NCBI GenBank assembly: GCA_044376115.1
Contig: JBILLK010000011.1
Coordinates: 283,628 to 347,627, forward strand
Origin: Polyangiaceae bacterium
Lineage (GTDB): Bacteria; Myxococcota_A; Polyangia; Polyangiales; Polyangiaceae
DNA length: 64,000 nucleotides
Reading direction: 5' to 3'
Under the pieces are notes generated by a model, which made no database searches, was not told where the DNA came from, and was given only the letters and a program-made list of their open reading frames with translations. Both the position numbers and the translations under genes were made by a program. Shown here in pieces: positions 27,367 to 60,455 of the stretch. Within the stretch, counting starts at the first letter, position 1; each line of letters begins with the position of its first letter.

Positions 27367-29211
27367 TCAGTGATTCCAAGCCTCACGCACCATCTTCAAA
27401 AAGCTGCGCTGGTCAGCCACCCAATCGTCGACGTCGAAGCGCGCCTCTCCCGCGGAGTGAAGCGTCAGCTCATCCGCGAGGATCTCGCGCTCTCCCTGGA
27501 CCGTTTGCGGATGCAGCAGCTCGTCCACCACGCTCAGGCGGTTGAAGGCCGCGTTGCGCCGAAGCCGGCCTGCAAGCGTTGGTTGCCACGAAAGCACCTG
27601 CGGTTCGGCGGTCTCAACATCGAGTCGCTTCGAACCAAAGCGCGGGATGGTGATGCCGGAGATGCGCTGAATGGCGAGCGCCGCGTCATCGGCGTAGCCT
27701 TTGAGCAGCTCCACCGTGCCCGGCTCGACGTCTTCGAGCAGGCGCTTGTCGAGCACCTTGATGACCGCGAACAGGTCTTGCACGTGCGGCGCGTGACCGA
27801 AGAAGCCCACATCGCGATAGCGTTTGGTCAGCTCGGCCAGCTTCCAGACCAGTTCGTGGTCGGCCAAGTTGCCGATGATCGAAAGCCCGCGCAACACTCT
27901 CCGTGCCGTTGCTTCGTCTCGCATCGCGAGAGCTCGCGGCGCGAGTTCCAAGAGGATCAGCCGGCCTCGACTTTCTCCATGTAGCGCGAGCACCAATCCC
28001 TGCGTCGCGCGCACGATGGGCCTGGTTTCGGCGTCGCGGCCGTTGAGTGCTTCCAACATCATCGAAGACTTCGCGTTGCAGGTCGCCAGCGTCGCCAGTT
28101 CGGCCACCGTGGGATCAGGGTGGGTGAGCAGAGGCAGCATCGCGCCCGGTTGGAAGTAGCGTCGTCGGATCGCCGTCTGCAGCGCGACCACCATCAACTC
28201 TTTTCGGACATCCCCGCCCAGCAGCCCGCGGAGCCGATCATTGATCGCCGCCGAGGTCCCCAGCGAGAGCGCTTCAACGTAGGCTGGGAACACCTGCGGA
28301 TCAGCCGTTTTTAGCCCCATCTCAACCCACAGCAAGGCCGTGTCCGACGGTAGACACGAAAGGACGAAGGCGAAGGTGAAGGCGCGTCCACGATCGGGAA
28401 ACGACCACTCGGTGGCGTAGCCGTAAAGCGCCTCCGCGAGGTTCAACCGCGCTCGGCCTTCGACCACGGGGCGCGCGGTCGAGGTGAGCGCATCGAGGCA
28501 CGCAAGCAGCCGCTTCTCGAACTCCTCGGCGGTGATCCAAGGCTCGTGCTCGAAGCAGCGACGGAGCATCGAAAACGGCCCGATGTCCTCCATTGCCTCC
28601 CGCGCCAAGGTCTCCAACATCATCCGTTCGCGCTGCGTTCCACCGCTGCTCTTGCCAGGATGCTCGCGGCGAATGGCGGTCACGATCGATTGGTGGTCGT
28701 CGTTGGCTTCGTTCTCGGGATCATCGTCTGCCGGATCCGGCTCGCTCTCGGGGGCACCAAAAAACCGGGGCGCCGGCACCTGGATCCCGGGCTGGCAGGC
28801 TGGAGTGCCGTTGCTCGCGAGAAAGACGTCGAAGTCGGCGATCCGACGCAGGCTTTGCGGCGCTCGCCCGGCGGCGTCCGATTCGACGACCTGGTCGATC
28901 GCGCTCGACAGCAGCGCCACGAGAAATGCCTCCGCGTCCTGAAGCGACTCGCGCACCGTCGCGACGGTCACCTGCTCGACGCTCGCCTTCACCAGCTCGC
29001 GGGCCCTGCGAAGATGGGCCACCCAGTCTTCATCGGCGTCTTGTCCGCCGCGGAACTCCGAAAGTTCGGTGAGCGCCTGCCGAAGTGATTGGTCGACTGA
29101 AGACCCTTCGAACCCGCGCCCAGCGGTGGAAAGCCTCAACAGAATGTCTACCAACTCCTCCGCGAGGAGTTCGGCCCGTTCCTGGACATCCTTCATTCCC
29201 GAGGAACTCAT
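27367..29211 (-). CDS. T6SS-locus associated helical protein (TIGR02270-like)
   Basis: Last gene of the vgrG operon, translationally coupled. The 'EEFEKRLLACLDAL' segment and HEAT-like helices resemble TIGR02270 proteins. Confidence 0.55.
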   Translation of the reverse strand: MSSSGMKDVQERAELLAEELVDILLRLSTAGRGFEGSSVDQSLRQALTELSEFRGGQDADEDWVAHLRRARELVKASVEQVTVATVRESLQDAEAFLVALLSSAIDQVVESDAAGRAPQSLRRIADFDVFLASNGTPACQPGIQVPAPRFFGAPESEPDPADDDPENEANDDHQSIVTAIRREHPGKSSGGTQRERMMLETLAREAMEDIGPFSMLRRCFEHEPWITAEEFEKRLLACLDALTSTARPVVEGRARLNLAEALYGYATEWSFPDRGRAFTFAFVLSCLPSDTALLWVEMGLKTADPQVFPAYVEALSLGTSAAINDRLRGLLGGDVRKELMVVALQTAIRRRYFQPGAMLPLLTHPDPTVAELATLATCNAKSSMMLEALNGRDAETRPIVRATQGLVLALHGESRGRLILLELAPRALAMRDEATARRVLRGLSIIGNLADHELVWKLAELTKRYRDVGFFGHAPHVQDLFAVIKVLDKRLLEDVEPGTVELLKGYADDAALAIQRISGITIPRFGSKRLDVETAEPQVLSWQPTLAGRLRRNAAFNRLSVVDELLHPQTVQGEREILADELTLHSAGEARFDVDDWVADQRSFLKMVREAWNH

Positions 29212-30212
29212 TCTTCATTCCTCGCTACGTGAAAGAGCCCTCGCTCCTTACCGTCAGAAGCCGTCACGATGGCCACGCTCGAACCAGCACCGAAACCCAA
29301 GGTGAGCCCAAGCGTCCCGATCACGAGCAACAGCGCTCCGCTGGCTGCGCCCACGTCACCAAAATCTCTCGGTACGTTCTGAATGATGGTCTTCTCTGGA
29401 TCGATCGTCGCAGGGTTGCGCATCGCGGCGTAGGTCCATTCCTTTACGCGATGTCGCTCACCGTTGAGGTCTGTGAGCACCCACGGGATCGGGTGCGGCA
29501 GTCTGGGATCACGGAGCAGCTTGGTGAAGCAGGCTGCGGTCGGCGGCCCCTCGAGTTCCTGCTCACCGGTCGCGACCAAGGTGATGGTCGCGAGTCGGCG
29601 TACCTCGGCTGGGACCTTGCGAAGCTTCGGTGACACACACACGAACGCTGCTGCTTCGCCTGGGATAAAGCCGTTGGCCGAGCGCTCCGAGAGCAACCGG
29701 AAGCCGGTATCGAGCGTCGCAATGCGCGCGGCATCGTAGTAGGAGTCGACGCCGCCGATGATGACGCGAATGTCGCCGTAGAGTTGGGCGCGCCCGAGTA
29801 GCGCAGCGAAACCGGCTCGTCCGAGTCGCACCACCGCCGACCGATCGTCGAGCGAGAGGTTCACAGCCTTCGCTAAATCGAAAAGAAGTCGGCTCGCGAT
29901 GCGCTCGTCCTCTCCTTCGTAAAGCTCTGGCAACGACAACAGCAAGATCGTCTTCTCCGAGCGAAGCTGCGGAGGTGCGGACGAAAGCACCTCTTCGAGC
30001 GCGGGGATGGCCAGAGCCAACATCCGCTCGTAGCCCACGGTATCGTCGCTCAGGTTTGCGGAGCGTACGGCGCCTACCGAAACTCCGGTCTTGTCGCGAA
30101 ACCGTGTCCCGCGAGGGTCTGCTTTGCCGGCGCGCCAGAACAGCGCAGTTTGGCGCGCGTCGAGGCCCAAAGGGGAGGAGGCTCCAACCGACCAGACCGA
30201 GAGTTCGCTCAT
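29208..30212 (-). CDS. Beta-ketoacyl synthase-like (PRK06147-type) T6SS accessory protein, catalytic Cys absent
   Basis: VGASSPLG, GGVDS, FIPGEAAA, DLNGE, GDVGAASGA; adjacent to DUF2169. Confidence 0.85.
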   Translation of the reverse strand: MSELSVWSVGASSPLGLDARQTALFWRAGKADPRGTRFRDKTGVSVGAVRSANLSDDTVGYERMLALAIPALEEVLSSAPPQLRSEKTILLLSLPELYEGEDERIASRLLFDLAKAVNLSLDDRSAVVRLGRAGFAALLGRAQLYGDIRVIIGGVDSYYDAARIATLDTGFRLLSERSANGFIPGEAAAFVCVSPKLRKVPAEVRRLATITLVATGEQELEGPPTAACFTKLLRDPRLPHPIPWVLTDLNGERHRVKEWTYAAMRNPATIDPEKTIIQNVPRDFGDVGAASGALLLVIGTLGLTLGFGAGSSVAIVTASDGKERGLFHVARNEE

Positions 30213-31651
30213 CTGGACTCAGCCTTCGCGAGCTGCTTGGGCTTTGCGGCTTGCTGGAGTTCGGTCACGTGATGCTCGAGTTCCTCCGCCGCGCGTGGGT
30301 CCGACTGGAGTCGCGTCATGGTGTTGCGTTCCCATCGAATCCACTCGCCGAGCGAGAGCTTCGCCTGCTTCAGTGCCTTGCTGGGATCCCCTTGGGACAT
30401 GCGGTGTCGCATCTCAGCGAATTCACGCAGCGTGCGCTCTTGCTCCTGAGGGCGAGCGAACGACTGGCTCTCCTGGGCCATCGCTTGCGCGTAGCGGGTG
30501 GCCAACGGCGCCTCGATCGGGTTCTGGAGCGTCTCCTCCATCATGCGCTCGGTCCAGGCGCGACTCTCGAGCGCAAACTTGAACTCGTTCGTGTCGTACT
30601 TCTGAAAAATGTCGGCGCGAGGTCGGCGTGCTTCGTTGAGTTCGGTCTGAATCTTCGCGAACTCCTCGATGCTGATGCGCGTGTCGGGCGCGAACGGGCA
30701 ATCGAGGGTCGAATACATGGCGTCTTCCAGCTCGTCTTCGTCGAGCTCGGGAGGCGCGATCCCGGCCACGGCGTCCTCGTAGCTCCACGCCCACTCGAAG
30801 TGCCCGTGGCCCATCTCACGATAGAGCTCAGGAAAGCCGTCTTCCCATTCGTCGTCGGTCGCCCATCCGATGAGCACCCGGTCGATCTCGCTCGGGTCGT
30901 CCCTGCGGAACCAGGAGCCACGCCAAGTAACCTCGAGCTCGCACTTCTCGACGTCGATGATCAACGTGTCGAGGTGGAGCGGCTGGATGCGACTCTTTTC
31001 ATCGCCATCTTGTGGCTCGACCAGCACGCGGGGGGCTCGTTCCGGGATGCGCGCCTTGAAGTAAGGCTCCGGTTGATCATCCAGTTGGAGGAAGAACTCC
31101 ATCCCCGGTGTCAGCGTGCCCAAGTTGCGAGCAAGCGCCGGGTGGCTGAACGAGTACAGCTCGAAGGGAAAACCCTCGGGATGATCGAACTCGGTTTCAG
31201 CTGGGTTGAGCGCCTCATTGAGCCCGCAGTGTTCCTTCGTCCCGCCGATCACACGCACCGAACGCTCGTCGATCGCGATTCTCCCACCGACGTCGCTGGT
31301 GATGGAGATCGGCGTCTCCTCTTCGCCCAGAACCAGTCGCGCGGTCGCTCGAATCGGTTCGCCGCGTTTGCTCACCAAGTTGAACGACCCGGTCAGCGCT
31401 ACATCGATCCAAGGTTTCGACGGTACAAAGTCGATCGGGCGAAGCAGCGTCTGGGATTGTTCCGGCGTACCGATCATTACGTCCGGCCGCGTGAGACCGC
31501 TGGCGTCGTCGAACGGCACCCTGGTCTTGACGATGATGCCGTAGAGCCCGGTGTCTTCGTAGCGCCAGTGAAGCACGCCGGTTACTTGGGGCGCTCTGCT
31601 CAGCTTGGCCGATAGGTGAGCAGCCGACGTAGCGACCAAAATACGATCCAT
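30209..31651 (-). CDS. DUF2169 T6SS chaperone (copy 2) with C-terminal helical repeat extension
   Basis: DFVPSKPWIDVALTG and LDTLIIDVE...EVTWRG, followed by two related helical units (SIEEFAKIQTEL...; TLREFAEMRHRM...). Confidence 0.8.
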   Translation of the reverse strand: MDRILVATSAAHLSAKLSRAPQVTGVLHWRYEDTGLYGIIVKTRVPFDDASGLTRPDVMIGTPEQSQTLLRPIDFVPSKPWIDVALTGSFNLVSKRGEPIRATARLVLGEEETPISITSDVGGRIAIDERSVRVIGGTKEHCGLNEALNPAETEFDHPEGFPFELYSFSHPALARNLGTLTPGMEFFLQLDDQPEPYFKARIPERAPRVLVEPQDGDEKSRIQPLHLDTLIIDVEKCELEVTWRGSWFRRDDPSEIDRVLIGWATDDEWEDGFPELYREMGHGHFEWAWSYEDAVAGIAPPELDEDELEDAMYSTLDCPFAPDTRISIEEFAKIQTELNEARRPRADIFQKYDTNEFKFALESRAWTERMMEETLQNPIEAPLATRYAQAMAQESQSFARPQEQERTLREFAEMRHRMSQGDPSKALKQAKLSLGEWIRWERNTMTRLQSDPRAAEELEHHVTELQQAAKPKQLAKAESR

Positions 31652-31680
31652 CTATTTCTCCACCTACCACAGCTTGGCTA

Positions 31681-31707
31681 GCGCCTCTCCAGTCCCCGGA
31701 GAGGCGC
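31681..31707 (-). other. Strong intergenic hairpin without U-tail
   Basis: GCGCCTCTCC-N7-GGAGAGGCGC, a 10-bp perfect stem between the effector gene and DUF2169 copy 2. Confidence 0.5.
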
Positions 31708-31777
31708 ACCGACCGACAGCACGGCCGCAGAATCAAGGTTCGGCGACGCCGTTCCGCCGGTAGGCTACACAACCTGA

Positions 31778-33616
31778 CTAGCCGTCATTCTTCGCGAACA
31801 GTGAGCGCAGCGGACGGAACGTCTGATCTCCGTACTTGTACTTCCAGGAGTCCGGGAACCACGAGCCGCTTTCGTCACGTTCCCACCACAAGGCGCGGAT
31901 TTGGAACATTGCCTTAACGCCAGGATCGATCGACCCCTTTTGCAGATCGAAGCCGATGTCATTCTCCGGCGGGTACTTCTTGAGATTGCCGAAGGTCGGC
32001 TTCCATTGCGCGCCACCCTCGACTGTCACAGAACCCAGCCTGCGAATGCTGACCGAGGCGTAGAGGAAGAACTCGAATGCCAAAGGAACAGTTAGGTCGG
32101 CGATGAGAACCTCTTCGTACTCGTTCCAGCCAAAGGAGAGCTTTATCCCTAACTGAACTTTGAAGCGCACGCCGACCTGAGCGTCGGCGACGTAGTCGAC
32201 GATTTTTTGCGCCACCCAGCCGAGTCCGGGAATCGCATTGAGCAACGCACTCAGCGGTACGCCGAGCTTGATCTCAGCGCTCAACAGCTCGGTGCAGGAA
32301 AGGTCCAAGTAAACGGCCTTATTGCACTGGTACTTCTTCAGCCCGATGCTCGGGACGTCCCTGTCCAGCTCCTTCCACTGACAAACGAATTTCGCCGCGG
32401 GATCCTCGAGCAGCTTGATGTCGAGCCTAAATCGAGCGCCGATCGTGTTGAGCAGCCGTTGTCCGGCTTCAGCGAAGGACTTCAACTTCTCGAAGGCAGC
32501 CTTCACCGGCCCGAAGTCTTTGAGATCGAACTCGGCTTCCTTGTAGGGGAAGATCACGAGTTCGAAGCTTTGAGAGCCTGAACAGGCAATCGCTTGAATG
32601 TTGATTCGGCGTGGATCGTTGCGAAAGCGGAAGACCTTGAGCCAGTCGTAGATGCTCTTGATGTTCGTGGCGGCGGTGATGAGGGGTTTGCCCTTCTTCA
32701 TCAGCTCGCCCCATTTGGCCTTCTGCTTAAGCTTCTCGTCGACCACCGCATCGCGGCCGCCGTTCTTCCAGGCTTCGCGTGCCTCAGCCTTCGCTGCTGC
32801 ACGGTCACCCGTGAGCGGCGTGCGATTCTGGACATTGGAGTCGATCGTGTTCGGGTCGAGGCCGCGGCGCACGCGCGAGTCCTTGGCGATTCGATCCGCT
32901 GCTTCTCGGTCGGCCGCCTCCCTGGCCTCCTTGAGGTTCTTTGCTGCCTTGTCGGCCTGATAGGCCTCCTTTTCGGCCTTCTCTTTGTCCGTTAGTTTGA
33001 CGTCTTTCGGTGGCTCGCGAGCGAAGTCAGGGTTCGGGTTGTACCAGTTGACCTCGAGCGTCTGCTTGTCCCCGAAGCGCTCCTCCTTTTTCTCGTTCAT
33101 ATCCCCGCCTTTTTTGCGGGAAATGACCCACTTGGTGTGGGGCTTGGCTTCGGGGCACTCCGGCGGGCCTTGCTTCTTTGCGTTGATGCGCTCGGCCTCG
33201 AGCTCGGTCACGTCGTCGTCGACGATCTCGAGAATCTTGCTGTCATCGAGCGTGCGCTTGCCGCTCTTGAGCAACTTGATCTTGACCATCGAGCAGGCCT
33301 TCTTGGCCTCTGCGTCGACGTTGGGCTTCGCTGCTGCGCCGCCGCCTTCCACGAGCGCGCCGGTGCTCGGCGGTTGCTTGTGCACGGTGGAGTCAGTCGT
33401 GCGCGCCAGGCCGTCTCCCTGCGCGGTAACGGTTGGGGAGCCGTTGGTTACCGTCGCGTTGCCCGCCAAGGTCGTTCCTTGGGTCACTGCCTTCCCGCCG
33501 GAAACCTCGGTGCGCGACTTCGGATTGTCGGCTGCCGCCGTCGGTACGATCGGCGAGGTGTGAGCGGTGCCGTCAGATGCAGCTGACAAACCTTGGTTAG
33601 TAGTAACGCCTGCCAT
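31778..33616 (-). CDS. Putative T6SS effector with degenerate N-terminal PAAR-like (DUF4150-type) domain
   Basis: N-terminal GSPTVTAQGDGLARTTDST resembles the PAAR/DUF4150 'GSPTV-x-x-(E/N)G-x-x-x-AR-x-x-D' signature. Located in a vgrG/DUF2169 operon. C-terminal region unrecognised. Confidence 0.65.
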   Translation of the reverse strand: MAGVTTNQGLSAASDGTAHTSPIVPTAAADNPKSRTEVSGGKAVTQGTTLAGNATVTNGSPTVTAQGDGLARTTDSTVHKQPPSTGALVEGGGAAAKPNVDAEAKKACSMVKIKLLKSGKRTLDDSKILEIVDDDVTELEAERINAKKQGPPECPEAKPHTKWVISRKKGGDMNEKKEERFGDKQTLEVNWYNPNPDFAREPPKDVKLTDKEKAEKEAYQADKAAKNLKEAREAADREAADRIAKDSRVRRGLDPNTIDSNVQNRTPLTGDRAAAKAEAREAWKNGGRDAVVDEKLKQKAKWGELMKKGKPLITAATNIKSIYDWLKVFRFRNDPRRINIQAIACSGSQSFELVIFPYKEAEFDLKDFGPVKAAFEKLKSFAEAGQRLLNTIGARFRLDIKLLEDPAAKFVCQWKELDRDVPSIGLKKYQCNKAVYLDLSCTELLSAEIKLGVPLSALLNAIPGLGWVAQKIVDYVADAQVGVRFKVQLGIKLSFGWNEYEEVLIADLTVPLAFEFFLYASVSIRRLGSVTVEGGAQWKPTFGNLKKYPPENDIGFDLQKGSIDPGVKAMFQIRALWWERDESGSWFPDSWKYKYGDQTFRPLRSLFAKNDG

Positions 33617-33660
33617 CGGATTCTCCTCTCAAGGGGACTGAAAGTCTTAACTTCGGGCGT

Positions 33661-34470
33661 TCAGCGGAAGATCCGCCAACCACTGCCCTGGCGAACGAGA
33701 TAGGGCTTCACCCTCCACGCCGTTCGCGGTTCGGTCTTGTGCTGAGCAAACAGAGCCGGGCCCCGTTCGTCGTCGGTCACGTACACGACACGCCCCTCAC
33801 AACAGGAGCGGAAGCGTAGCTTCTTCGGGTCGAAGGGCTTTAGGTCCCACTCCATCCCGAAGAACTCGGCGGTCTCCTTCTCGAGCTCGCTGCGAGTCGC
33901 GTCGGGGCTGGGGCCTGTGTAGCGAACGAGGTCTGCGATCTTCGTCGACGTGATGTTGAGGAACGCATCAACGTCGCGTCGAACGAACGCCGAGTGGAGC
34001 TCGAACAGCGGTTGAAGCAGCTCCGGCGAGCCATCCTCGCGAATCGCCGCGCGGGGTGCGTTCGCCCAGATCGGATCGGGGATGTAACCCGGCGGTGTGA
34101 ACTTCATCACGTCCGAGCGGATCGGAAATTTCCTCCGTTCGGGCGGAAGGGACTCCACGAAGTCGGGATAGCGAACGTTGAACACGTTCACCTCGTCCTC
34201 GACCTTCATCACGTGAAGGAAGAAGGCCAACTCGAACATGGGCAACGCCGGGATGTCCATGTTCATCGGAGCCTTCTCCACTTCAATCACTACCTCGTTC
34301 TCTCCTGGGATGAGAAACGGGCAGCCGTGGAAGGTCGGCGCGGAAAAGTCCATCGTCGACTTTTCATACATCGGTACGTCATTGACCAAAGCCGTGACGA
34401 ACGTTCCAGCGTTCTGCAGTACTCGGGCGACGTAGGGAGCCGCTTCTTCAGTCATAACGCGATCGCTCAC
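33661..34470 (-). CDS. Hypothetical protein in the vgrG operon (candidate immunity or adaptor)
   Basis: GTG start overlaps the vgrG stop; no signal peptide; C-terminal part looks NTF2/SnoaL-like (AFVRRDVDAFL...GWRIFR). Confidence 0.7.
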   Translation of the reverse strand: MSDRVMTEEAAPYVARVLQNAGTFVTALVNDVPMYEKSTMDFSAPTFHGCPFLIPGENEVVIEVEKAPMNMDIPALPMFELAFFLHVMKVEDEVNVFNVRYPDFVESLPPERRKFPIRSDVMKFTPPGYIPDPIWANAPRAAIREDGSPELLQPLFELHSAFVRRDVDAFLNITSTKIADLVRYTGPSPDATRSELEKETAEFFGMEWDLKPFDPKKLRFRSCCEGRVVYVTDDERGPALFAQHKTEPRTAWRVKPYLVRQGSGWRIFR

Positions 34471-36677
34471 TTTTGCTTGGCGGAGGAGCTTGCGACGCAG
34501 GTTGCGCCGGTGGTGGAGGTCTTGATCGAGCCTTTGGTCTTCATCGTAACCGTGCCGTCGGAGATCACGATCTCGGTATCACCAACCTTGAGCGTGAGCT
34601 TCTCTTTGCCGGTGTAGGTGGCCTGCTTGGAGTCCTCGGTCAGCTTCATCCGACCAGCGAGCAACAGGTTCTTATCGGCTTTGACTTCCCAGTCTTTGCC
34701 GACTCGAAGGAGCCGCTTCTTCTCCACGCGGGTGGCGTGCTCCTTGTCGCACTTCTCGAACAAGATGCCGCCGATCACCTCGATGCGATTTTTGCCGCTC
34801 GTCTCGGTCTTCGACTTCTTGGCGATCTCGAAGTAGAGCCCGCCGACGATGCTGTAGGTGGTCTCGCCGGCTTGGTTCATGTTGGCTTTGACGCTGAACT
34901 CGGTTGCGTTTCCACCAATCGATTGGTTGAAGTTCTGGCCCGATTGGAACTGGTAACTCGAACCAGCGACGTAGGTGGCGTTGCCGCCTGTCTTCAGCGT
35001 GTGATCGGCGGTGACCGTCTCCTCCAACGCCTTGCCCGTGTTTAGCTTGAAGGTCCCACCGATCTCCTTGACCTGGTTGCCTTCGACCTCCGCGGAGGCG
35101 TACGCCTTGAGGGCGATCTTCTTGTCGCCGCCGACTTTGAAGATCTCGTCGTGCCCGACCGTGAGCGAGTCGGTGTTGTCGATCTGCTCCTTCTTGTTGT
35201 GCGCGATGCGGACGTTTTGGTCCTTGTGTGCGGCGAAGGAGATTTGTTCGTTGCCCACGAGATCCTCGAGCTGCAGGCAGTTCATGCCTGTCTCGGTGCG
35301 CGGCGAGGTGAGTGAACGGAGGCTCGTGCGCGTCTTCCACTTGGGCAGCGGGTTGTAGGCAGGATCGCCACCGTTGTAGACGCGGCCAAGCACGATCGGC
35401 CGGTCGGGATCGCCCTCGAGGAACTGCACCATCACCTCCCACTTCGTTCGCGCGACCCCGACCGAATTGGCCGTGTTGTCCTGAACGACCGGCACCCAGT
35501 GCGAGCAGTTGTCGTCTTTGGGTTGCAACCGATCCCAAGGGAAATGGACCTTGGTGTCGCCTGTTTCGTTGGTGTGAATGTCGGCGCCTGCAGGTCCGGT
35601 GGTGAAGCCCGTCAACGGGTTCGGCTCGGTCGGCACGTAGGTCAGCTGTTCGGGCCGGAAGGTGACCGACTCACGTTGAGCTTCGAGTGAGACCTTGAAG
35701 CCGTTGTTCTCGCGGTGGAAGTCGTGCTTCAGGGCCGTCACGACGTAACCGCCATCGCGAACGCCCATTGGCGCTCCGCTCATCTCGAAACGTGCACCAA
35801 CTTGGAGCTCCGCGCAGAAGGACTCACCGATCAAGCGTTGGTGCGCGCAGGCGAGCGCCTCAGCGCGTTTCTTGGCTTTGATCTGACCTTCACCGGGCTC
35901 GAGGTACTCGCCCGGATAGTCGTAGAACTCAGCGCCATTCTCAGTCGGGCCGTCCGCTTCGACGTCCATGTTGAGGCTCGGATGCGCCGGGTTGAAGTCG
36001 CGCAGCGAAACTTTGCCGGCCGTCATCAAGCCGCGCATACCAACCGCCGAGACGCTGTCCTCGTTTTGGTCCAGGCCGGAGCCGTAGCGGTAGGGCAGGG
36101 AGGCGACGCGCGGATCGTAACCGGCGGGGTGATCCCCGAGCACCACGGTGCTGTCGTCGGTGAGGAAGTAGTAGATGCCCTCGTCTTCGAGCAAGCGCGC
36201 TGCGAAGTCGTAGTCGGACTCGCGGAACTGCACGCAGTAGGGCCGCATCACGTAGGACTCACGCAAGCGATTGTCCACGTTGACGCCCATTTGATTGAGC
36301 ACCTGCGTGACGATCTCGGGGGCGGTCTTGTCGCGGAAGACCCGAATGTCGACGCGCTTGCGCAGCATCGCAAGCCGTGGTTCGAGGGTGACCGCGATCT
36401 CTCCTCCACCCGTGGTCCCTCCACGACCCTTGCGAGTCGCCGAGCGCATGAACTCGGTCACGTGCGTGGAGATCCTGCGCACGGAGTTCTTGCGCATCAG
36501 CACCAAGGTCGCGGGCCCGCTGACCACCATATCCGGGTGGATCGGGTCGGTTGACTCGACGTTGAACAGCAGCTCGAACTTGTGCGTCGCGCTGATCCGT
36601 TCCTCGCCCTTGATCGAGCGAACTTCGTAGGACTGTCCGAGCAGCTCCAGAAAATACCGAAGAGGTTCCCTTGCCAT
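34467..36677 (-). CDS. vgrG: Type VI secretion spike protein VgrG (copy C)
   Basis: YCVQFRESDYDFAARLLEDEGIYY, YDYPG, VHFPWD, FLEGDPDRP, gp5-like beta repeats. Confidence 0.93.
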   Translation of the reverse strand: MAREPLRYFLELLGQSYEVRSIKGEERISATHKFELLFNVESTDPIHPDMVVSGPATLVLMRKNSVRRISTHVTEFMRSATRKGRGGTTGGGEIAVTLEPRLAMLRKRVDIRVFRDKTAPEIVTQVLNQMGVNVDNRLRESYVMRPYCVQFRESDYDFAARLLEDEGIYYFLTDDSTVVLGDHPAGYDPRVASLPYRYGSGLDQNEDSVSAVGMRGLMTAGKVSLRDFNPAHPSLNMDVEADGPTENGAEFYDYPGEYLEPGEGQIKAKKRAEALACAHQRLIGESFCAELQVGARFEMSGAPMGVRDGGYVVTALKHDFHRENNGFKVSLEAQRESVTFRPEQLTYVPTEPNPLTGFTTGPAGADIHTNETGDTKVHFPWDRLQPKDDNCSHWVPVVQDNTANSVGVARTKWEVMVQFLEGDPDRPIVLGRVYNGGDPAYNPLPKWKTRTSLRSLTSPRTETGMNCLQLEDLVGNEQISFAAHKDQNVRIAHNKKEQIDNTDSLTVGHDEIFKVGGDKKIALKAYASAEVEGNQVKEIGGTFKLNTGKALEETVTADHTLKTGGNATYVAGSSYQFQSGQNFNQSIGGNATEFSVKANMNQAGETTYSIVGGLYFEIAKKSKTETSGKNRIEVIGGILFEKCDKEHATRVEKKRLLRVGKDWEVKADKNLLLAGRMKLTEDSKQATYTGKEKLTLKVGDTEIVISDGTVTMKTKGSIKTSTTGATCVASSSAKQK

Positions 36678-36706
36678 GTTGGTTTCCTTTGGTCTCGAGG
36701 AGGCGG

Positions 36707-38950
36707 TCAGTTGTGGGAGATCTTGGAGGCGTTACTGTCGACGCTTCCGCCAGAGAGGCTCAGGCCGGTTCCCTCGAAGGTGATGCCGTCCTTGGTCAGA
36801 GTGATGGCGCTGTTGCCGCACTTCACGCGCAGCGTCTTCTCCGCCTCCACGTGCACCGACTTCCCTTTGGCGGTGATCTCCTCGGACACTTTGATCTCCT
36901 GGAGATTGTCGGCGTTGTCTTTGAATTCTTTCTTCGCCTTGCACTTGAGGCTGCCACCCACGAACTCGAACGAGCGCTTCTTGACGTTGGTGGTGCGCTC
37001 CTTCTTGGCGCTCTCGACCTTCGCGCCGCCGACGACCTGAATCGAGTGCTTGTCGGCCTGGTCGGTGAGCGATTGCCCGCTGATGCGGCCGAGGATGCCG
37101 CCCACGACCTTGCTGGTGTTGATCACGGCGTACTCGGTGATGTCACCGAAGGAGATCTCGTTCAAGCTGCCGCCGATCGACAGTTGCTTGTTCTTCTTGA
37201 CGTCCTGCGTGACGCTGTCGCCGGCCATGTAGTTGAGGTTGCCACCGATCGAGCGAGTCTCGCTGCCGGTGACCTCTTTGGCCACGACGTCTTGAACCTC
37301 CATCGTGAGGTTCCCGCCGATCTTGTAGTTCTGGTTTTGCCCGACCTTCTCGCTCATCTGCGCGTCGATGTGCATGGTCAGGGTCGCTCCAACCTCATGC
37401 AGCGAGTCGTTGTCGATCGCCTCGTTTGCACCGTGCCGAACGCGCTTGTTCATGTCCTTCGATGCGTTGATGAACATCTCCTGACGACCGTGCGCGTCCT
37501 CGAAGTAGATCTCGTTATGAGCCGTGCCGCCCTCGCCGCCGCCGATGGTGGGCGTCTTGAAGACCACTCGGGTCATGTTGTCGGGCAGGCCGTAGGCCGG
37601 CGGGTGCTCGGCATCGTGGATGCGGTTCAAGATGCTGGGAACGTCGACGCCGCCTTCCTCGTTGAAGGTCGTCACGTTCCAACCCATGCGCGGCAGCAGC
37701 ATCGAGCCCGGCGCGCCACGTTGTGCGATGCGCATCCACGTGCCGCTCTTCTCATTCCAGTTACCGCGACGATCCCAGTGCAGCTGGGTACGGACTCGGC
37801 CGCGCGCGTCGGGGTGTACCTCGGCGCCCGAGGGCCCAGTGACCTTGCCCATCTGAATGCCGACCTGCTTCGCTTGCGGCGTCGTTCGCAGCGGACGGAA
37901 CGCTAGATCCTTCGGAATTGCTGTGAAGCGGGTGACCGACGGCTTCTTGTGATGAGCCTCCACCTCGACCGAGGTGATCAAGAACTCACCGTTCAATCGC
38001 ACCAGCGGGTGGCCGATCATCACGAAAGTCCTACCCGGCGTCATGCGCGTCGTGATGGCGATGCCAGAGATCCCGCGCCGCGCCGCCTCAGCAGCCTGCT
38101 TTGCGTCTTTGATACGGCGCTCGAGGATCGCGGGCTCCACAGGACCGGCTCCGGGTGCGTCGTAGTCCTCGCGGTGACTATCGCCGTCGGACGCCGAGAT
38201 TCCCATCAGCGGGCGATCCGGGTCGAAGGAACGACCCGAGAACTTGCCCGAGGCCATTCGGGCTTGGAAGCTGACCTCGACCACCGCCTCTTGATCGGGG
38301 CGCATCGAGCTCGGCTCGGCGTAGTTGATGACCGGGATGCCCTCGATCGGCGGAGCCGCTTCGGAGGTGTCCGCGAAAACTACCGCCGAGTCATCGCCCT
38401 CGTGATCGAACCAGTAGTAGATCCCCTCCTCTTCGCAGAGCCGGCTCACGTAGGTCCAATCGTCTTCCCGGTATTGAACCTTGTACGGATACGTCGGGTA
38501 GTCGCGCGAGAGCTCGTAGCGGATTTTGCCCGGGTAGTCCTCGAGCACGTCTTTGATGACTTGCACCGTGGACACCTCTTGCAAGGCGTAGCAATCGCGG
38601 CCGAGGAACTGACGAAACACAGCGGGGCGCATCGTCAACACCGCACGGTGCGTGGAGGCGTCGAAGCTGCGTGCGTGGATGTCGGTCACGATGCCGACGA
38701 TCACGCGCGCTTGGCCTGTCACGTCGCGCACGGTCAACGCCGCCCGGCCACCAATCACGAACGTTAGATCCGGCGGAGGCCCATCGAGCTCAACCTCGAC
38801 CTCGTAGGAGAACAGCGTCGAGAGCTGCTCCTTTCCTTTCACGTGAAGGACGTAGCCTGTGTCCAACCCTTCCACGGAGATCTCCACTGGGGAGAAGTCC
38901 GGGTTCATTTTGCCTTCGATATTCGCAAGAACGGTTTCGAGCACACTCAT
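36707..38950 (-). CDS. vgrG: Type VI secretion spike protein VgrG (copy B)
   Basis: VQYREDDWTYVSRLCEEEGIYYWF, GRVRTQLHWD, LPRMGW, NEIYFED...INASKD. Confidence 0.93.
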   Translation of the reverse strand: MSVLETVLANIEGKMNPDFSPVEISVEGLDTGYVLHVKGKEQLSTLFSYEVEVELDGPPPDLTFVIGGRAALTVRDVTGQARVIVGIVTDIHARSFDASTHRAVLTMRPAVFRQFLGRDCYALQEVSTVQVIKDVLEDYPGKIRYELSRDYPTYPYKVQYREDDWTYVSRLCEEEGIYYWFDHEGDDSAVVFADTSEAAPPIEGIPVINYAEPSSMRPDQEAVVEVSFQARMASGKFSGRSFDPDRPLMGISASDGDSHREDYDAPGAGPVEPAILERRIKDAKQAAEAARRGISGIAITTRMTPGRTFVMIGHPLVRLNGEFLITSVEVEAHHKKPSVTRFTAIPKDLAFRPLRTTPQAKQVGIQMGKVTGPSGAEVHPDARGRVRTQLHWDRRGNWNEKSGTWMRIAQRGAPGSMLLPRMGWNVTTFNEEGGVDVPSILNRIHDAEHPPAYGLPDNMTRVVFKTPTIGGGEGGTAHNEIYFEDAHGRQEMFINASKDMNKRVRHGANEAIDNDSLHEVGATLTMHIDAQMSEKVGQNQNYKIGGNLTMEVQDVVAKEVTGSETRSIGGNLNYMAGDSVTQDVKKNKQLSIGGSLNEISFGDITEYAVINTSKVVGGILGRISGQSLTDQADKHSIQVVGGAKVESAKKERTTNVKKRSFEFVGGSLKCKAKKEFKDNADNLQEIKVSEEITAKGKSVHVEAEKTLRVKCGNSAITLTKDGITFEGTGLSLSGGSVDSNASKISHN

Positions 38951-38960
38951 GGCATCCTCC

Positions 38961-41738
38961 TCAGGCGCTCAGCTTGTCAGGGCCGCCCTTGATGTTGCAC
39001 GGGCCGTCGGACTCGAGTTTCAGCGAGCCTTCGATCGTGATGCTTTGCGGAGTCAGCTCGACGGCTGCACCCTCGATCTCGAGACGGAATTTTTCTTCAG
39101 CCTCCAGCTCGATCTCGGTGCCGCGAACCTCAAACTCCTCCTTCGACTCCCACTTGGCGTTCTTCTTGACGACGATCTTGCTGTCTTGAGCCGAGTGGCT
39201 CATCGCGTCTTTGGTCTTGCGACGGATGGCGAAACCAACCACTCGAATCAGCCGGCCGTTTGCCGACTGCGTGATGTTCTCCTCTTGCGTCATGGTGATC
39301 TTGAGACCGCCGACCACCTCGACGAGGTTCTCGTTCGCAAGGTTTTGAACCTGACCCGCGGCGCTCTTCACGTAGTTACCGGCTACGCTCATGGCGAAGT
39401 TCTGGTCGACGTTCTTCGAGATATTGCCGACCATTGCCGAAGAGATGTCTTGCCCAACCGTCGGTCCGCTTCCGCCGCCGCCACCAGCGTCTGCGCCACC
39501 GCCGCCTCCGTTGGCTGCGTTGCTCAGGCCGCCAGGAACTCCACCGGCGTTGCCGGGGCCGCCGCCGCCGTTACCGCCGCCACCACCAGCATTACCGCTG
39601 AGCCCGCCGGGGACGTTGCCCGCTCCGCCCGGGCCGCCCTTCGGCTTTCCGCCGAACAACGACTTTGCCTTGGGCAAGATCGACATGCCGGTCTTGAGCA
39701 GCGGCATCGTGTTCGGCATTTTTCCTTCGAGCACGTTGACCGAGTCCGAGAACTTGCGAGCCGCGAGCTCGGACACGTACTCGCACTTGTCGCCGTCATC
39801 AGGCTTGCTGGGCTTGCCAACCTTCTTCTCGATCGCTGACTGGAGGGCCTTCTTCCCGAGATCCCCGAGCAACTTGCCGAGCGGGCCGCCCTCTCCGCCC
39901 GGGTAGCCGCCAGCACCTGCGTCGAGACCGCCCTTGTTGCCGCCGACCAGCGTGTTCAACAACTCGGCGGCGCCCGGAACGTGGATGCTTACGCTGCCGA
40001 CGCGCGTGGTGACGTTGCCACCAACCGACTCGGTGCTGTTGCCTGTGATGGTCAGCGTGATGGTCTTGGCGGCTTGGATTTGTTCGTTACCGCCGATCTT
40101 CTCGTTGCGGTTCTGTTTGACCCGAGTCTTGTGGGTTTCACCGATCTGGCGCGTCTCGTTGCCCTCGACCTCGACCTTTTGGTCGTTACCTACCGAGCGA
40201 CTGAAGCCCAGCTTCACGAGCCGCGTTTGGTCGTTGCCGATCTTCTCGGTCTTGTTGTTGCCGACCTGGTTTAGGAAGTCGCGCTGGGCGTGCATATCCA
40301 TCACCATCTTGCCGGGCGTATCGTCGAGCCGTACCTCGTTGAAGCCTTGCTTGCCCGGGTAGGACTCGGTCTTGATCGTCATGCGATTCTTGAAGCTCGG
40401 CTGGGTGTACATCGGCACCATTTGGCCGTTGATTTGGCGGCTGATCCCCACCGGCCGATCCGGGTCCCCGTCGATGTAGGAAACCGCGATTTCCCAACCG
40501 ACGCGCGAGAGCACGATCGACGTCGAGGTCTCTTGAAGCACGCGGATCCAGCGCGAATCTTCGTCGGTACCTTTGGCTTCGCGATCCCAATGAAACTGCA
40601 CCTTGGCGCGACCCCAGGTGTCGGTGTGAATCTCTTCGCCCTCGGGGCCGCGCACCATCGCAGTATGGTTGCCGACGATCACCGGGTGGGGCGTTACCAA
40701 AGCCGGCCGGAAGGGTACGTCTGCGGGAATGGCTTTCCACGTGTTCTCGTACTTGCCTTGCCCTTCGCTCGCGTACTTGGTGACGAGCTTGTGCTTCACG
40801 TGCGTGAGCATGTACCGACCCGAAAAGTCGGTGGCTTCGGTGTGTACGAAGATGAAGCCGACGCCGGGGCGGAAGGACACCACGCTGCTCGTGCCTTTGG
40901 CGTAGGAGCGGAAGGCCGTTTGGGCCTCCATCCGAAGCCGCGCGAGCACCTTGCCCTGGTCTCCCTGCCGGTATCCGACGGGATACTCGTACACCTCGAG
41001 GTCGGCGTCGCGCTCATTGGCAGCCGTCGCCAGCAGCGAAACATCGGGCGTCTTCCAGTTGTAGTCGTTGACGGTCGAGGTCCCGCTGGTGGTCATTCCA
41101 CCGCGGTGGAAGGAGGTGATGCCCGGCTTGTCGTCGGCCATCGCGCCCCCGGTTTCGAGCAGCTCGAACACGCTGGGGATGTCCGCATGGGACGAGGACG
41201 CATCGCCAAACTGGATGCTGCCGTCGTCAGAAAAGCTGTAGTAGATGCCCTCGAACTCAAGCAGCCGACTGACGAAGTCGAAGTCGGACTCGCGATACTG
41301 CACGGTGTAAGGGCGCAGGTCGCAGGCGCGGGTGTTGGAGAACTCGTGCTCGACTCCGCTCTCTCCGAGCACCTTCGAGATGATGTCCTCCGGCTTCATG
41401 TCGCGGAACTTGCGGGTGTTGCGCCGGAACTTCACGAAGTAGAAGTCCGGGTGGAGTTCCAGCGCGTAGCGTAGCGATTGGTCCACTACGCCTTTGAAGG
41501 TGGAGGAACCGAGCCGCATCGTGAAGGTGCGAATCGGAAACCCTTTCGAGGTGATGATCAGAATCGCGCGCTCGTCGATCAGCGGGTCGAAGTCCACGTC
41601 GGTAACGTTCGCGACCACGACTCTGGCGACCGTCGACTCGCTGAGGCCTTCTTCGATCTCCGCTTCGAGTACGCGAAACGTGCTCGGCCCGATCACTAGC
41701 TGGAGGTCCAACTCGTCCATGGCAAACGGCAAATCCAT
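38961..41738 (-). CDS. vgrG: Type VI secretion spike protein VgrG (copy A) with Gly-rich insertion in the C-terminal region
   Basis: VQYRESDFDFVSRLLEFEGIYY, EIHTDTWGRAKVQFHWD, GDPDRP, GFNEVRLDD, HAQRD. Confidence 0.94.
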   Translation of the reverse strand: MDLPFAMDELDLQLVIGPSTFRVLEAEIEEGLSESTVARVVVANVTDVDFDPLIDERAILIITSKGFPIRTFTMRLGSSTFKGVVDQSLRYALELHPDFYFVKFRRNTRKFRDMKPEDIISKVLGESGVEHEFSNTRACDLRPYTVQYRESDFDFVSRLLEFEGIYYSFSDDGSIQFGDASSSHADIPSVFELLETGGAMADDKPGITSFHRGGMTTSGTSTVNDYNWKTPDVSLLATAANERDADLEVYEYPVGYRQGDQGKVLARLRMEAQTAFRSYAKGTSSVVSFRPGVGFIFVHTEATDFSGRYMLTHVKHKLVTKYASEGQGKYENTWKAIPADVPFRPALVTPHPVIVGNHTAMVRGPEGEEIHTDTWGRAKVQFHWDREAKGTDEDSRWIRVLQETSTSIVLSRVGWEIAVSYIDGDPDRPVGISRQINGQMVPMYTQPSFKNRMTIKTESYPGKQGFNEVRLDDTPGKMVMDMHAQRDFLNQVGNNKTEKIGNDQTRLVKLGFSRSVGNDQKVEVEGNETRQIGETHKTRVKQNRNEKIGGNEQIQAAKTITLTITGNSTESVGGNVTTRVGSVSIHVPGAAELLNTLVGGNKGGLDAGAGGYPGGEGGPLGKLLGDLGKKALQSAIEKKVGKPSKPDDGDKCEYVSELAARKFSDSVNVLEGKMPNTMPLLKTGMSILPKAKSLFGGKPKGGPGGAGNVPGGLSGNAGGGGGNGGGGPGNAGGVPGGLSNAANGGGGGADAGGGGGSGPTVGQDISSAMVGNISKNVDQNFAMSVAGNYVKSAAGQVQNLANENLVEVVGGLKITMTQEENITQSANGRLIRVVGFAIRRKTKDAMSHSAQDSKIVVKKNAKWESKEEFEVRGTEIELEAEEKFRLEIEGAAVELTPQSITIEGSLKLESDGPCNIKGGPDKLSA

Positions 41739-41752
41739 ACGTTTCTCCTCGA

Positions 41753-42796
41753 TCAGCTGGCTTTGGGCCAGGGCTCGTCAGTCAACATTTCTGGGGCAAG
41801 GGACACGGTGGCGAAGGAACGGATTGCTTGCAGCCGATCCCACTTCATCGGAAGAATGATTGATGCGCGGTACGTGAGTTCCACGGTGCGCTCATCGGCG
41901 TCGATCAAGAGGCCGTCGAGATGGGTCGGGTGCAAACGCACCTGATCGTCCAGAACGCTCTCGCAGAAGATCGGGTAGCGGGGGAGCTTGAAGCGCCAGG
42001 TGCCCTCGGGGAGAACGCCGCCAACCTCGATCGGCTCGTCGCCCAGGAGCGGCGTCTTCGAGTGAAGACCAGGCGCGGCCCAGCTGTGGTGCGCTACCTG
42101 AAAGTCGAGCGGACGAATGGGGAGGCGCTCTTCCTCCCAGGCCTTGTCACAGGTCCCCTTGCGCGATTGCCTCGGCTCCCAGTTCTCCCAAATGGGCGCG
42201 AAGCAAGCGTGCGCCGGGTGGGACTTCTCTTCCGGCCGCAGCGGATCGTAGATGGGCTCGAGCTGGGGAGCCGGGTGGCCGACGTGATAGACCTTGTCTT
42301 TGCCAAACCCTCTTCCGATGTGGTTCTCAGGACAGAGGTTGCTCTCGTGATCCTTGCCCCCGTAGCAGAGGTCGTAGCGAAGCGGCGTTGGGCCAAGCGC
42401 GCCTACGTCTGTGGTTGTAATTCCAGTGAGAGCGTTCTTGTAGACAGCCGGACCGCCGATTTGGACGATTTTGCGCACCGTCCCAACTTGCAGCCAAGCG
42501 AGCGCCCGATTTTTTTCCTTGGCTTCGCGCGTTAGGGCGGGGTAAGCGGTCCCTACCAGGCCGATGTCGGTTCCCGTCTTCTCCTCGACTAAGTCGCTGG
42601 GGAACCGCAAGGAGCCCTGCTCACCTACGGACGAAATCCGTATGGGGCGGAACCCGAGCCTCACTTCGCCTTGGGCGCTCAGGCGGAAAGCGAGCTTGGC
42701 GATGACGGTGCAGACGTCGTACCCGAGCCGATCGGTGAGCAGGTGGCACTGCACCGTCGCGTAGCTTCTGTTCTCGAGTCGTTGGTTGAAGTCCAT
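41753..42796 (-). CDS. DUF2169 T6SS chaperone (copy 1)
   Basis: SLRFPSDLVEEKTGTDIGLVGTAY, YDLCYGG, NHIGRG, WEPR...GT-x-D-x-x-W, LLGDE, LDGLLID...LTYR. Confidence 0.9.
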   Translation of the reverse strand: MDFNQRLENRSYATVQCHLLTDRLGYDVCTVIAKLAFRLSAQGEVRLGFRPIRISSVGEQGSLRFPSDLVEEKTGTDIGLVGTAYPALTREAKEKNRALAWLQVGTVRKIVQIGGPAVYKNALTGITTTDVGALGPTPLRYDLCYGGKDHESNLCPENHIGRGFGKDKVYHVGHPAPQLEPIYDPLRPEEKSHPAHACFAPIWENWEPRQSRKGTCDKAWEEERLPIRPLDFQVAHHSWAAPGLHSKTPLLGDEPIEVGGVLPEGTWRFKLPRYPIFCESVLDDQVRLHPTHLDGLLIDADERTVELTYRASIILPMKWDRLQAIRSFATVSLAPEMLTDEPWPKAS

Positions 42797-49533: not shown

Positions 49534-50964
49534 CTACTTCTTGACGAAGGCGCGCACGTTGCCGAGGACGGCGAACAAGCTGCCGTCTTCGAGCAATACG
49601 GCGACTGGCGCGCCGCGTACGATGGATTGCGAGCGAAAGTTAGCGCCGGGAATCGTTTGCGCCGGTGCGCCGCGCTTGCCCACGGCCAACCCGTCTTTGG
49701 TGGCGACGCATTGATCGTTGTTCTCGGTGTCGAGGCGCAAAAGCTCATTGGGCCCGGCCTGCATTTCGCCGCGCTCCATCGCGAGCCGCTGCAGGTGCAG
49801 CACATGGCCCACAATCTCGGCCTCAAGAACGTGATCGCGTTCTCCCGCCGTATCGATCAGGCGGGCGAGCAGCGTACGAAGCTCCGCGCGGGCGGTGCTC
49901 TCCATCTTGCGCACGCCGTCTCGTTGGCGTTCCGCGTGAAGGACCTGCACGAAGACGCTCGGGATCTTCCCCGACTCGTTGGAGGGGGACTTCTCGGCCG
50001 CGAGCGGACGCGAGGGCGGTGCGCCCACTTCGGAGGGGCGGGCGCCAACCTCGGAGGGCCTGGGTGGAGGGGCTGGCGTGCCGTCGGGCGGCGTCTTCGG
50101 CCGGGCGTTGAGGTACTCGGCGGCTCCTGCGAACACAGCTCCACCCGGCGGAGCGGGCGGCGGCATAGGCGAACCCGGTGGGACAGGCGAACCGAGGTAA
50201 GCCGCGGGCGTAACAGCCCCGTTGAGCGTGCGGTGGAGGCGCGAGAAGGTCTCGCGTTGCAACTCCCAACGAACCTCCGGTCCGTGGGAGGTCCGCAGCT
50301 TGCGGATGGGTGAGGTCTTGATGCGCGTGCCGGCCACCGGTTGGTTGACGCGCAAGGGCTCGAGGAGGCCGAGACTGCCCTCCGTCGGCAGGTGCCCCGC
50401 GTAGATGCTCTGATAGACGTATTGCCGCCGGAACGGCTTGTTCTCGATGGGTGCGGATATCAGGAGCAGCGAGCCGGAGTACGTAAGGATGACCGCGCTC
50501 TGTCGCGAATCTGCGGGTAACCACGGCGCCTCGACGAGACCTGCTTCCTCAGTGATCGAGTTCCACAGCGCGTCTTGTTCGAGATACTCGGCTGCCTTGA
50601 CCTCGAACAGGTCGCGGTACTTCGCTTCGTATTGCAGGCCCAAGATCTGGGCGAGCGCGAAGCGCTCGTCCGGCCCGAGGGAATCGAGCGCCGTTCCAAA
50701 GCTCGCTGACGCGGGCCCGAGGTTGGGGCTGTGCGCATCCACCTCGGCGAGCAGCGCGTTGAAGTCCCGGCGCATGCTCGCGAGCATGTTGACCGCACGC
50801 ATGCGTTCGTCGTCTTTCAGTCCAGCACGAGAAGCATAACGAGCCCACTCGTGAATCCACCCGTCGAGTAGGGTCGCATATTCGTAGAGGCGGTCGGCGT
50901 TGGGGTGGCCGGTGAGCCGCTTACGAAGAGCTTGAACGCGCAACGATGCTCGCGGTTCGTCCAT
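49534..50964 (-). CDS. Hypothetical protein with Pro-rich linker
   Basis: 476-aa ORF; two globular regions joined by a PPP/PSEVGA repeat linker. Confidence 0.7.
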   Translation of the reverse strand: MDEPRASLRVQALRKRLTGHPNADRLYEYATLLDGWIHEWARYASRAGLKDDERMRAVNMLASMRRDFNALLAEVDAHSPNLGPASASFGTALDSLGPDERFALAQILGLQYEAKYRDLFEVKAAEYLEQDALWNSITEEAGLVEAPWLPADSRQSAVILTYSGSLLLISAPIENKPFRRQYVYQSIYAGHLPTEGSLGLLEPLRVNQPVAGTRIKTSPIRKLRTSHGPEVRWELQRETFSRLHRTLNGAVTPAAYLGSPVPPGSPMPPPAPPGGAVFAGAAEYLNARPKTPPDGTPAPPPRPSEVGARPSEVGAPPSRPLAAEKSPSNESGKIPSVFVQVLHAERQRDGVRKMESTARAELRTLLARLIDTAGERDHVLEAEIVGHVLHLQRLAMERGEMQAGPNELLRLDTENNDQCVATKDGLAVGKRGAPAQTIPGANFRSQSIVRGAPVAVLLEDGSLFAVLGNVRAFVKK

Positions 50965-51005
50965 ATAGGCCGAGCCAGGCTATCAGAAGCTTCGCGCTTG
51001 GGGCG

Positions 51006-59428: not shown

Positions 59429-59827
59429 ATGCCCACGATCAATCAGCTCATTCGTCAAGGCCGTGAAGCCAGCGTCTGGAAGACGGCTTCCCCCGCGCTC
59501 AAGTCCTGCCCCCAGCGCCGCGGCGTCTGCGTTCGCGTCTACACGACCACGCCGAAGAAGCCGAACTCGGCTCTTCGCAAGGTCTGCCGCGTCCGCCTGA
59601 CGAACCAGATGGAAGTGACCAGCTACATTCCCGGTGAAGGCCACAACCTCCAGGAGCACTCCGTCGTGCTGATCCGCGGCGGTCGTGTGAAGGACCTCCC
59701 CGGTGTTCGCTACCACGTCGTTCGTGGCACGCTCGACGCCTCGGGCGCCAACGGTCCCAGCTCGACCAACAAGGCTAACCGCAATCGCAAGCGCTCCAAG
59801 TACGGCGTCAAGAAGCCCAAGGGCTGA
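59429..59827 (+). CDS. rpsL: 30S ribosomal protein S12
   Basis: [28 protein letters not shown]. Confidence 0.99.
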
Positions 59828-59907
59828 GACGCTCGAGCAACCGTTTTTGAATCACTTTCTGACCCACGTGTTTGCCACGTGGCTCCCGCCAGAGAAAGAA
59901 GACAGCA

Positions 59908-60378: not shown

Positions 60379-60385
60379 TTCCGGT

Positions 60386-60424: not shown

Positions 60425-60455
60425 GTTGATGGAAGCAAGCTAGCGAGCAATGAAC

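Follow-up and report, generated by a model that had tools for sequence, protein, structure and literature searches.

Background

Do three adjacent and highly divergent vgrG genes that share a single gene for a PAAR-like tip protein encode three separate type VI secretion system (T6SS) spikes, or the three chains of one asymmetric spike? This question is raised by a nine-gene operon in the 10.1 Mb genome of a Polyangiaceae bacterium, which occupies positions 27367-42796 on the minus strand of a 64-kb window (the whole stretch of DNA analysed here; positions without a contig or locus name are window coordinates). A first-pass annotation had proposed a dedicated asymmetric A:B:C spike that uses a distant T6SS, and this proposal is supported by a conserved gene order, a matched needle length, a stagger of one repeat between the chains and directional covariation among them. 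On the strength of these sequence data we regard it as likely that VgrG-A, VgrG-B and VgrG-C form one heterotrimeric spike of fixed order.

Three VgrG proteins of separate clades

VgrG-A (925 aa, 38961-41738), VgrG-B (747 aa, 36707-38950) and VgrG-C (736 aa, 34467-36677), all encoded on the minus strand, are full-length and highly divergent, as had been claimed. All three exceed the cut-off of the VgrG model TIGR03361 (394, 329 and 354 bits, respectively, against 186), each contains a gp27-like hub (PF05954) and a gp5-like needle (PF22178) above both cut-offs, and their pairwise identity amounts to 27-30%. The oligonucleotide/oligosaccharide-binding (OB) fold PF04717 falls short of its threshold in C (E 3e-4) as well as in B (E 0.04) and is not matched in A; the B profile aligns across this region with solved VgrGs (PDB 4MTK and 7Q5P were matched).

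The motif departures that the annotation had quoted for A, B and C are all present in the sequence, and its suggestion of complementary motif loss holds for two of the three chains. In all 69 A-B-C triplets A has lost the P of PRxG, and in all 69 B has lost GDPxRP (EEGxxDxP takes the place of GDPDRP, with the consensus EEGGVDAP). The changes in C are not clade-wide: GR is kept in 59 of the 69 triplets and the P of PRxG in 54, so that the GDTKV and ARTK of the window copy are local to this lineage. Two variants of other loci may be mentioned here. VgrG-C carries C-terminal extensions of 190-250 aa, small-enzyme-like in look and without a Pfam match, at L105:12236-15016 and L254:7441-10416, and the needle of B contains an amphipathic-looking insertion of about 35-40 aa in one sub-lineage (L046, L048-L051, L252).

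Needles of equal length, staggered by one repeat

In gp5 and VgrG the needle is built from three chains that interdigitate and carry a VxGxxxxx repeat, and its length can change by whole repeats (PMC4576200; here and below, the cited papers are represented by excerpts). We compared the needles of 69 A-B-C triplets with those of 45 X-Y-Z and 14 D-E-F triplets, two related cassette families described below, and used 52 related single VgrGs as a control. Counted from a conserved AxKD anchor, the terminal strand is situated at repeat 26 in all nine clade consensuses (the later repeats being parsed by hand). The tail deviates by at most 4 aa from its median (250-254) in 61/69 B, 60/69 C, 45/45 X and 44/45 Y proteins and in 14/14 each of D, E and F, and the needles of A and Z possess one added insertion each. 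The tails of the single VgrGs, by comparison, vary between 191 and 263, with peaks at 222, 230, 238, 246 and 254, i.e. in steps of 8 aa.

Every third repeat of these needles is a V-G-G repeat (VG[GA]), and its phase differs between the chains. It recurs at repeats k = 4, 7, 10 and so on in A, at 5, 8, 11 and so on in B (needle start at about 37426), and at 3, 6, 9 and so on in C (needle start at about 35192); the corresponding alignment-free offsets are 40/64/88, 48/72/96 and 32/56/80, and the X-Y-Z and D-E-F cassettes show the same phases. From the geometry of the needle, strand k of one chain would be expected to stack on strand k+1 of its neighbour. Scored in this way, the order A, B, C gives the best stacking of like on like in 68/69 A-B-C, 45/45 X-Y-Z and 14/14 D-E-F triplets, and the window triplet reaches 0.95 in forward order, 0.13 in reverse order and -0.17 to 0.12 for each chain on itself. 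Homotrimers of A, B or C are probably disfavoured, because the self-stacking signal is absent.

A 1:1:1 assembly of fixed order would follow this stagger, with each A strand beneath the next B strand, and likewise B beneath C and C beneath A. The interdigitated triple beta-helix would then place like repeats on one face, resulting in a prism whose three faces differ and along which a single Gly-Gly corner runs without a break. So arranged, one face would be rich in Thr and Val and bear the Gly-Gly corner (positions 5 and 6 being G in 79% and 67%), the other two would be more variable, and the insertions of A (repeat 11) and Z (repeat 10) would lie on the same face. The insertion of the window VgrG-A (39431-39986, minus strand) comprises about 185 aa, is Gly-rich and partly amphipathic-looking, appears to be looped out from the needle, and measures 0-380 aa among the orthologues listed. 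The Polyangium triplet L083 (737, 726 and 736 aa) is free of insertions. Autocorrelation at 24 residues over the first 80 needle residues sets the A-B-C and X-Y-Z cassettes, on average, apart from single VgrGs, and does not do so for D-E-F. A further test, on interior volume and charge per layer, favoured A-B-C in nearly all triplets and was discarded, since averaging three chains yields this result trivially.

Directional covariation along the needle

If the chains interdigitate in one order, residues of consecutive strands should covary between genes in that direction. Mutual information with average product correction (MI-APC) over the needle peaks for A(k)-B(k+1), B(k)-C(k+1) and C(k)-A(k+1), with z values of 6.9, 10.1 and 8.0, and the X-Y-Z counterparts reach 10.3, 11.8 and 9.0. 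At a distance of one strand the z of each of A, B and C with itself is below 1 and that of the reverse order about 0; Z with itself gives z 4.2. These z values are not probabilities, as the sequences come from related organisms, and the offset, direction and single-VgrG controls share the same relatedness. The ring closes, because the coupling of C(k) with A(k+1) exceeds that of A(k) with C(k+2) (z 8.0 vs 3.7), the pair that homology alone would favour. Along a face, the coupling decays with distance (0.081, 0.041, 0.026, 0.018).

The same picture emerges from the gapless first six repeats, where MI-APC at one strand amounts to 0.089 forward, 0.003 reverse and -0.006 self in A-B-C, and to 0.114, 0.005 and 0.012 in X-Y-Z. 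The identical procedure reveals a self-coupling of 0.144 in the single VgrGs (n=52), against -0.003, 0.000 and -0.005 in A, B and C taken one by one. Outward positions of A-B-C pair opposite over like charges at a ratio of 1.52 forward, 0.70 reverse and 0.79 self; the X-Y-Z ratios are 1.95 forward and 0.79 reverse. Both lineage halves of the A-B-C set (26 and 43 loci) replicate the result. Gene conversion is not the cause of the coupling, because the sharing of synonymous codons is flat in A-B-C (0.50-0.52) and only slightly raised in X-Y-Z.

Distribution and origin of the cassette

An initial set of 20 loci fetched through matches to the middle gene comprised 18 A-B-C arrays (one of them truncated where its contig stops) and two other triplets; those relatives that bear names are Polyangiaceae, including Polyangium, Sorangium and Byssovorax. 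A wider census of Polyangiaceae and related families (loci L034-L329 and three regions of the bacterium's own genome) was dereplicated to 179 arrays. Complete and in order are 154 of them (82 A-B-C, 55 X-Y-Z and 17 D-E-F; one gene is in pieces in five), and 14 more are truncated by contig ends with their order kept. The remaining 11 entries are two arrays of a rarer fourth family, P-Q-R, at contig ends, two halves of one triplet that was split by the gap rule, four fragments and three arrays that lack a member. No mixed or four-gene arrays occur among the 154 complete ones. The phylogeny and synteny check that the annotation had set beforehand shows A, B and C as separate clades (support 1.0, 0.997 and 1.0) next to these counts of order.

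Because most loci had been selected through the middle gene, profiles of A, B and C were also searched separately in 121 genomes of the family, with 7-9 candidates scored per genome, a threshold of 550 bits, and coordinates matched by eye. At this threshold 37 of 40 A-profile matches adjoin a B-type match and the other three meet a contig end, and 43 of 44 C-profile matches have a B-type match upstream (the exception is L150). The B profile itself is matched at E 1e-140 or better in 108 of 383 family genomes, some of which may hold single vgrGs. Outside the order, four candidates were scored in each of 261 genomes from the phylum and no triplet was seen; ten top-scoring genomes, seven of them from other orders, showed no tandem vgrG.

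The genome under study contains a complete paralogue of the nine-gene operon on another contig (C92:117920-132870; identity 58% in A, 57% in B and 54% in C), whose PAAR-like domain is longer than that of the window copy. It also holds an X-Y-Z cassette (C48:123550-130964), which is followed by DUF2169 and PRK06147-like genes and no PAAR-like gene, and whose Z bears a conserved insertion, about 180 aa long, that is helical and rich in Gly. In a tree across the four cassette families (115 representative rows) the first genes group together (support 0.911), as do the second genes (0.973), and the third genes are less resolved. Grouping by gene position across families suggests one origin and later duplication of the cassette as a whole; at the level of sequence, this points to an old triplet that has since been copied as a unit. 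A further divergent triplet was seen at L365:3274-10736, whose first and second genes both lie near the second-position clade of the tree.

Exactly one PAAR-like open reading frame (ORF) accompanies the triplet in 66 of 69 A-B-C and 14 of 14 D-E-F loci, and none was present within the fetched flanks of 43 of 45 X-Y-Z loci. At L117:5598-9947 the whole PAAR-like effector is fused to the C-terminus of VgrG-A (PF13665 at residues 876-981, E 5e-17) and missing from its usual place. This single assembled locus suits one A chain per spike.

It is very improbable that the three genes are an old tandem array for three independent homotrimeric spikes, with the stagger left over from past gains and losses of repeats. 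Each gene does encode a complete VgrG, and the genome contains about 50 VgrG-like ORFs, some of them paired. Such an array leaves unexplained why the coupling of C with the next strand of A beats the pair expected from homology, why nearly all A-B-C loci hold a single PAAR-like gene, and why the 154 complete arrays include no mixed or four-gene cases.

Several observations weigh against a fixed-order heterotrimer. Three loci lack a member: in L150 a deletion from inside the DUF2169 gene to inside B leaves C and a remnant of B, L294 has B and C with no A within 4.9 kb upstream, and L299 has two genes only. The census loci were mostly chosen through middle-gene matches, and kin are not independent. 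In L045 (1/69 triplets) the stacking of C on itself scores above the forward order, the self charge ratio of X-Y-Z is 1.27, and synonymous sharing in X-Y-Z is slightly raised at one strand (0.525 vs 0.48-0.50). Directional coupling in the hub and OB region is not detectable above the control, with 407 pairs of z >4 in the consistent orientation against, on average, 483 when orientations are mixed. The PAAR-like domain of the window effector is about 40 residues shorter than in most relatives, and the missing stretch includes a conserved PxPN motif; the single PAAR-like gene of the annotation stands with this correction. An assembly error is an improbable source of the shortening, because the near-identical relative L074 has the same shortened domain. 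Finally, an apparent heterotrimer requirement in Aeromonas was traced to effector loading (PMC8668125, in excerpt).

Some of these points would suit a looser arrangement, in which the A:B:C spike is preferred and one or more chains can additionally build functional homotrimers or mixtures of another kind, much like the VgrGs of Vibrio, Aeromonas and Chromobacterium, which resemble each other more closely. The loci that keep one or two members and the self charge pairing of X-Y-Z above 1 are in line with it, as are mixed VgrG complexes reported from co-immunoprecipitation in an excerpt of bioRxiv 2022.04.29.490089. We consider this arrangement unlikely, given that one-strand self-coupling is absent from A, B and C singly and clear in single VgrGs, and that the needle length is locked across the chains.

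The operon and its accessory genes

The nine co-oriented genes, their close spacing and a Shine-Dalgarno motif before each vgrG, all described by the annotation, are borne out by the coordinates. From the first gene to the ninth the gaps are 14, 10, 29, -4, 44, 126, -4 and -4 nt, and the motifs 5' of vgrG-A, -B and -C read GAGGAG, GAGGAGG and AAGGA. A sigma-70 scan detected no promoter. Contigs from RNA libraries of relatives match at 90-99% identity over a large part of 31.4-42.8 kb, and 42.8-44.0 kb is not covered at all; we do not count them as evidence, as their shares are small, only contigs are at hand and an origin from DNA is possible.

All accessory genes lie, like the vgrGs, on the minus strand. 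Upstream of vgrG-A, the first gene (41753-42796, 347 aa) encodes a DUF2169 protein, i.e. a chaperone of TvpA type for PAAR/PIPY domains (PF09937, E 4e-52). The annotation's labels hold for this gene, for the second DUF2169 gene (30209-31651, 480 aa), which is divergent, has a C-terminal extension and matches weakly (PF09937, E 3e-10), and for the PRK06147/thiolase-like gene (29208-30212, 334 aa), a putative co-chaperone of TvpD type matched over its full length (NF004798, E 6e-46; 157 bits, below the cut-off of 342). Two labels stand at family level, through relatives, as the window copies themselves have no significant profile match. The ninth gene (27367-29211, 614 aa) belongs to a family of which 19 of 30 members match TIGR02270, which we take to be the armadillo-like gene of DUF2169 synteny type A clusters. 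The sixth gene (31778-33616, 612 aa) encodes the putative effector, with an N-terminal PAAR-like (DUF4150/PIPY) tip domain and a beta-rich C-terminal region; PF13665 (Tox-PAAR-like) is matched by 27 of 29 aligned members of its family. The model of this protein has a predicted local distance difference test score (pLDDT) below 50 at residues 1-54, and a fold search with it gave no significant or specific match (Atlas scores <0.8).

Directly ahead of the effector gene lies the fifth gene (33661-34470, 269 aa), which encodes a beta-sandwich and an NTF2-like domain (AlphaFold2 mean pLDDT 92.9). Its best fold match (Z 7.8) is to NTF2-like folds and is generic rather than specific, and it matches Atlas clusters without names at 0.97-0.98. 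From its position it is a candidate immunity or adaptor protein.

The DUF2169, PRK06147-like and TIGR02270-like products would load the sole PAAR-like effector onto the tip, as in Tvp class II. TvpC (DUF6484) has no stand-alone gene among the nine ORFs, the part of the genome covered by that search; a weak match of 23 residues lies inside VgrG-C. With TvpA- and TvpD-like genes at the locus, one might suppose that only one vgrG product is the secreted spike and that the others are VgrG mimics which hold the PAAR-like tip during assembly, in the manner of TvpC, described in the excerpt of PMC13373197 as a VgrG mimic that is replaced by VgrG. We give this supposition very little weight: TvpC is described there as being without a gp27 hub, which is present in A, B and C, and an exchange between homotrimers does not predict directional coupling between genes over the whole needle.

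Elsewhere in the window, an H-NOX (HNOB) gene adjoins a gene for a GAF-HNOBA-histidine kinase-receiver protein (1726-4729). Downstream of a TetR gene lie five ORFs of 273-697 aa, all on the minus strand (49534-56804), for which Pfam gives no match at E 1e-8, and rpsL-rpsG-fusA occupy the right end (59429-63998).

The secretion machine

The annotation had seen no T6SS core in the window, and indeed tblastn with nine T6SS core proteins of this genome found no match there. One recognisable core was found, all of it on contig C18 (TssA, B, C, F, J, K, L, M, ClpV and Hcp), against 51 VgrG-like ORFs on many contigs; the spike would be fired by this single T6SS. Several vgrG tandem pairs outside triplets occur on contigs C8, C56, C58 and C94. 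About 10 kb from the main tssC, a 782-aa protein (C18:129099-131447, i.e. L332:7099-9447) weakly matches TssB as well as TssC within the same chain and is possibly a fused sheath paralogue.

One could also imagine a genuine heterotrimer that serves a contractile machine other than the C18 T6SS, since there is no linkage between the cassette and the T6SS core, and three of the 37 genomes with a middle-gene match (among the 121 searched) have no TssC match. The chance of this seems slight. TssC is present in the other 34, and the three are draft genomes, 75-96% complete. The accessory genes belong to T6SS-linked families, and A, B and C pass the cut-offs of T6SS-type VgrG models while scoring only 32-52 bits with VgrG_rel (cut-off 275). 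No sheath, tube or baseplate genes of Afp/PVC type were recognised among the window ORFs, to which this comparison was confined.

Comparison with known systems

In gene content the locus resembles Tvp class II and DUF2169 synteny type A clusters, e.g. vgrG1b PA0095-tse7 of P. aeruginosa (excerpts of PMC13373197 and PMC11883445), which share with it a long-needle VgrG, DUF2169 (TvpA) and the presumed use of a T6SS core, and whose genes for PRK06147 (TvpD), a TIGR02270-like protein and a DUF4150/PIPY effector have putative counterparts here. It differs in having three vgrGs, each from a clade of its own, where those clusters have one, in the lack of a separate TvpC gene among the nine ORFs, in a second DUF2169 gene and in an additional NTF2-like gene. 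With the homotrimeric VgrG and the T4 gp27-gp5 spike (PDB 4MTK, 7Q5P; PMC4576200) it shares the gp27-like hub, the triple beta-helix of 8-residue VxGxxxxx repeats and a single capping tip protein, whereas the three different chains, their one-repeat stagger and coupling between rather than within genes imply that threefold symmetry would break.

Different VgrG products within one spike have been proposed for Vibrio cholerae, Aeromonas dhakensis SSU and Chromobacterium violaceum (PMC8668125; bioRxiv 2022.04.29.490089; both in excerpt). The Chromobacterium VgrGs are described as highly similar; the chains reported here, by contrast, are adjacent, only distantly alike, position-specific and co-evolving in one order. 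In P. aeruginosa, killing stayed intact after single vgrG1 deletions (PMC4067218, in excerpt). No printed description of the present triplet was found among the listed titles and abstract openings on VgrG heteromers, DUF2169 clusters and myxobacterial vgrG genes, a search that included few subscription papers and left aside the appendix of PMC13373197 with its sequences from other phyla.

Conclusions

We infer both the obligate nature of the heterotrimer and the purpose of its asymmetry. Since each chain would occur once per spike, cargo could be carried in single copy, be it as a loop (the insertion of A), a C-terminal extension or the PAAR-like tip. With slightly better than even confidence we extend this to a fuller scenario: the Polyangiales evolved an obligate, fixed-order heterotrimeric needle with a stagger like that of collagen heterotrimers and three specialised beta-prism faces, in which the conserved Thr/Val/Gly-Gly face and corner would act as a docking track over the full length, single-copy loops and fusions would let the chains bear separate cargo and would fix one tip per spike, and the cassette had a single origin and was later duplicated again to give at least four families.

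True VgrG heterotrimers have so far been argued from deletions and from pull-downs of similar paralogues, and at least one such requirement was traced to effector loading. The triplet family, by contrast, offers old, position-specific chains that encode their partner and order in readable form, occurs in genera available in culture such as Polyangium and Sorangium, and makes the heterotrimer question directly testable with contacts that are predicted. If correct, it would provide a natural three-chain beta-helix of defined order, useful for studies of folding and design, and it would mean that in these bacteria a threefold-symmetric part of a nanomachine breaks its symmetry for cargo carried in single copy.

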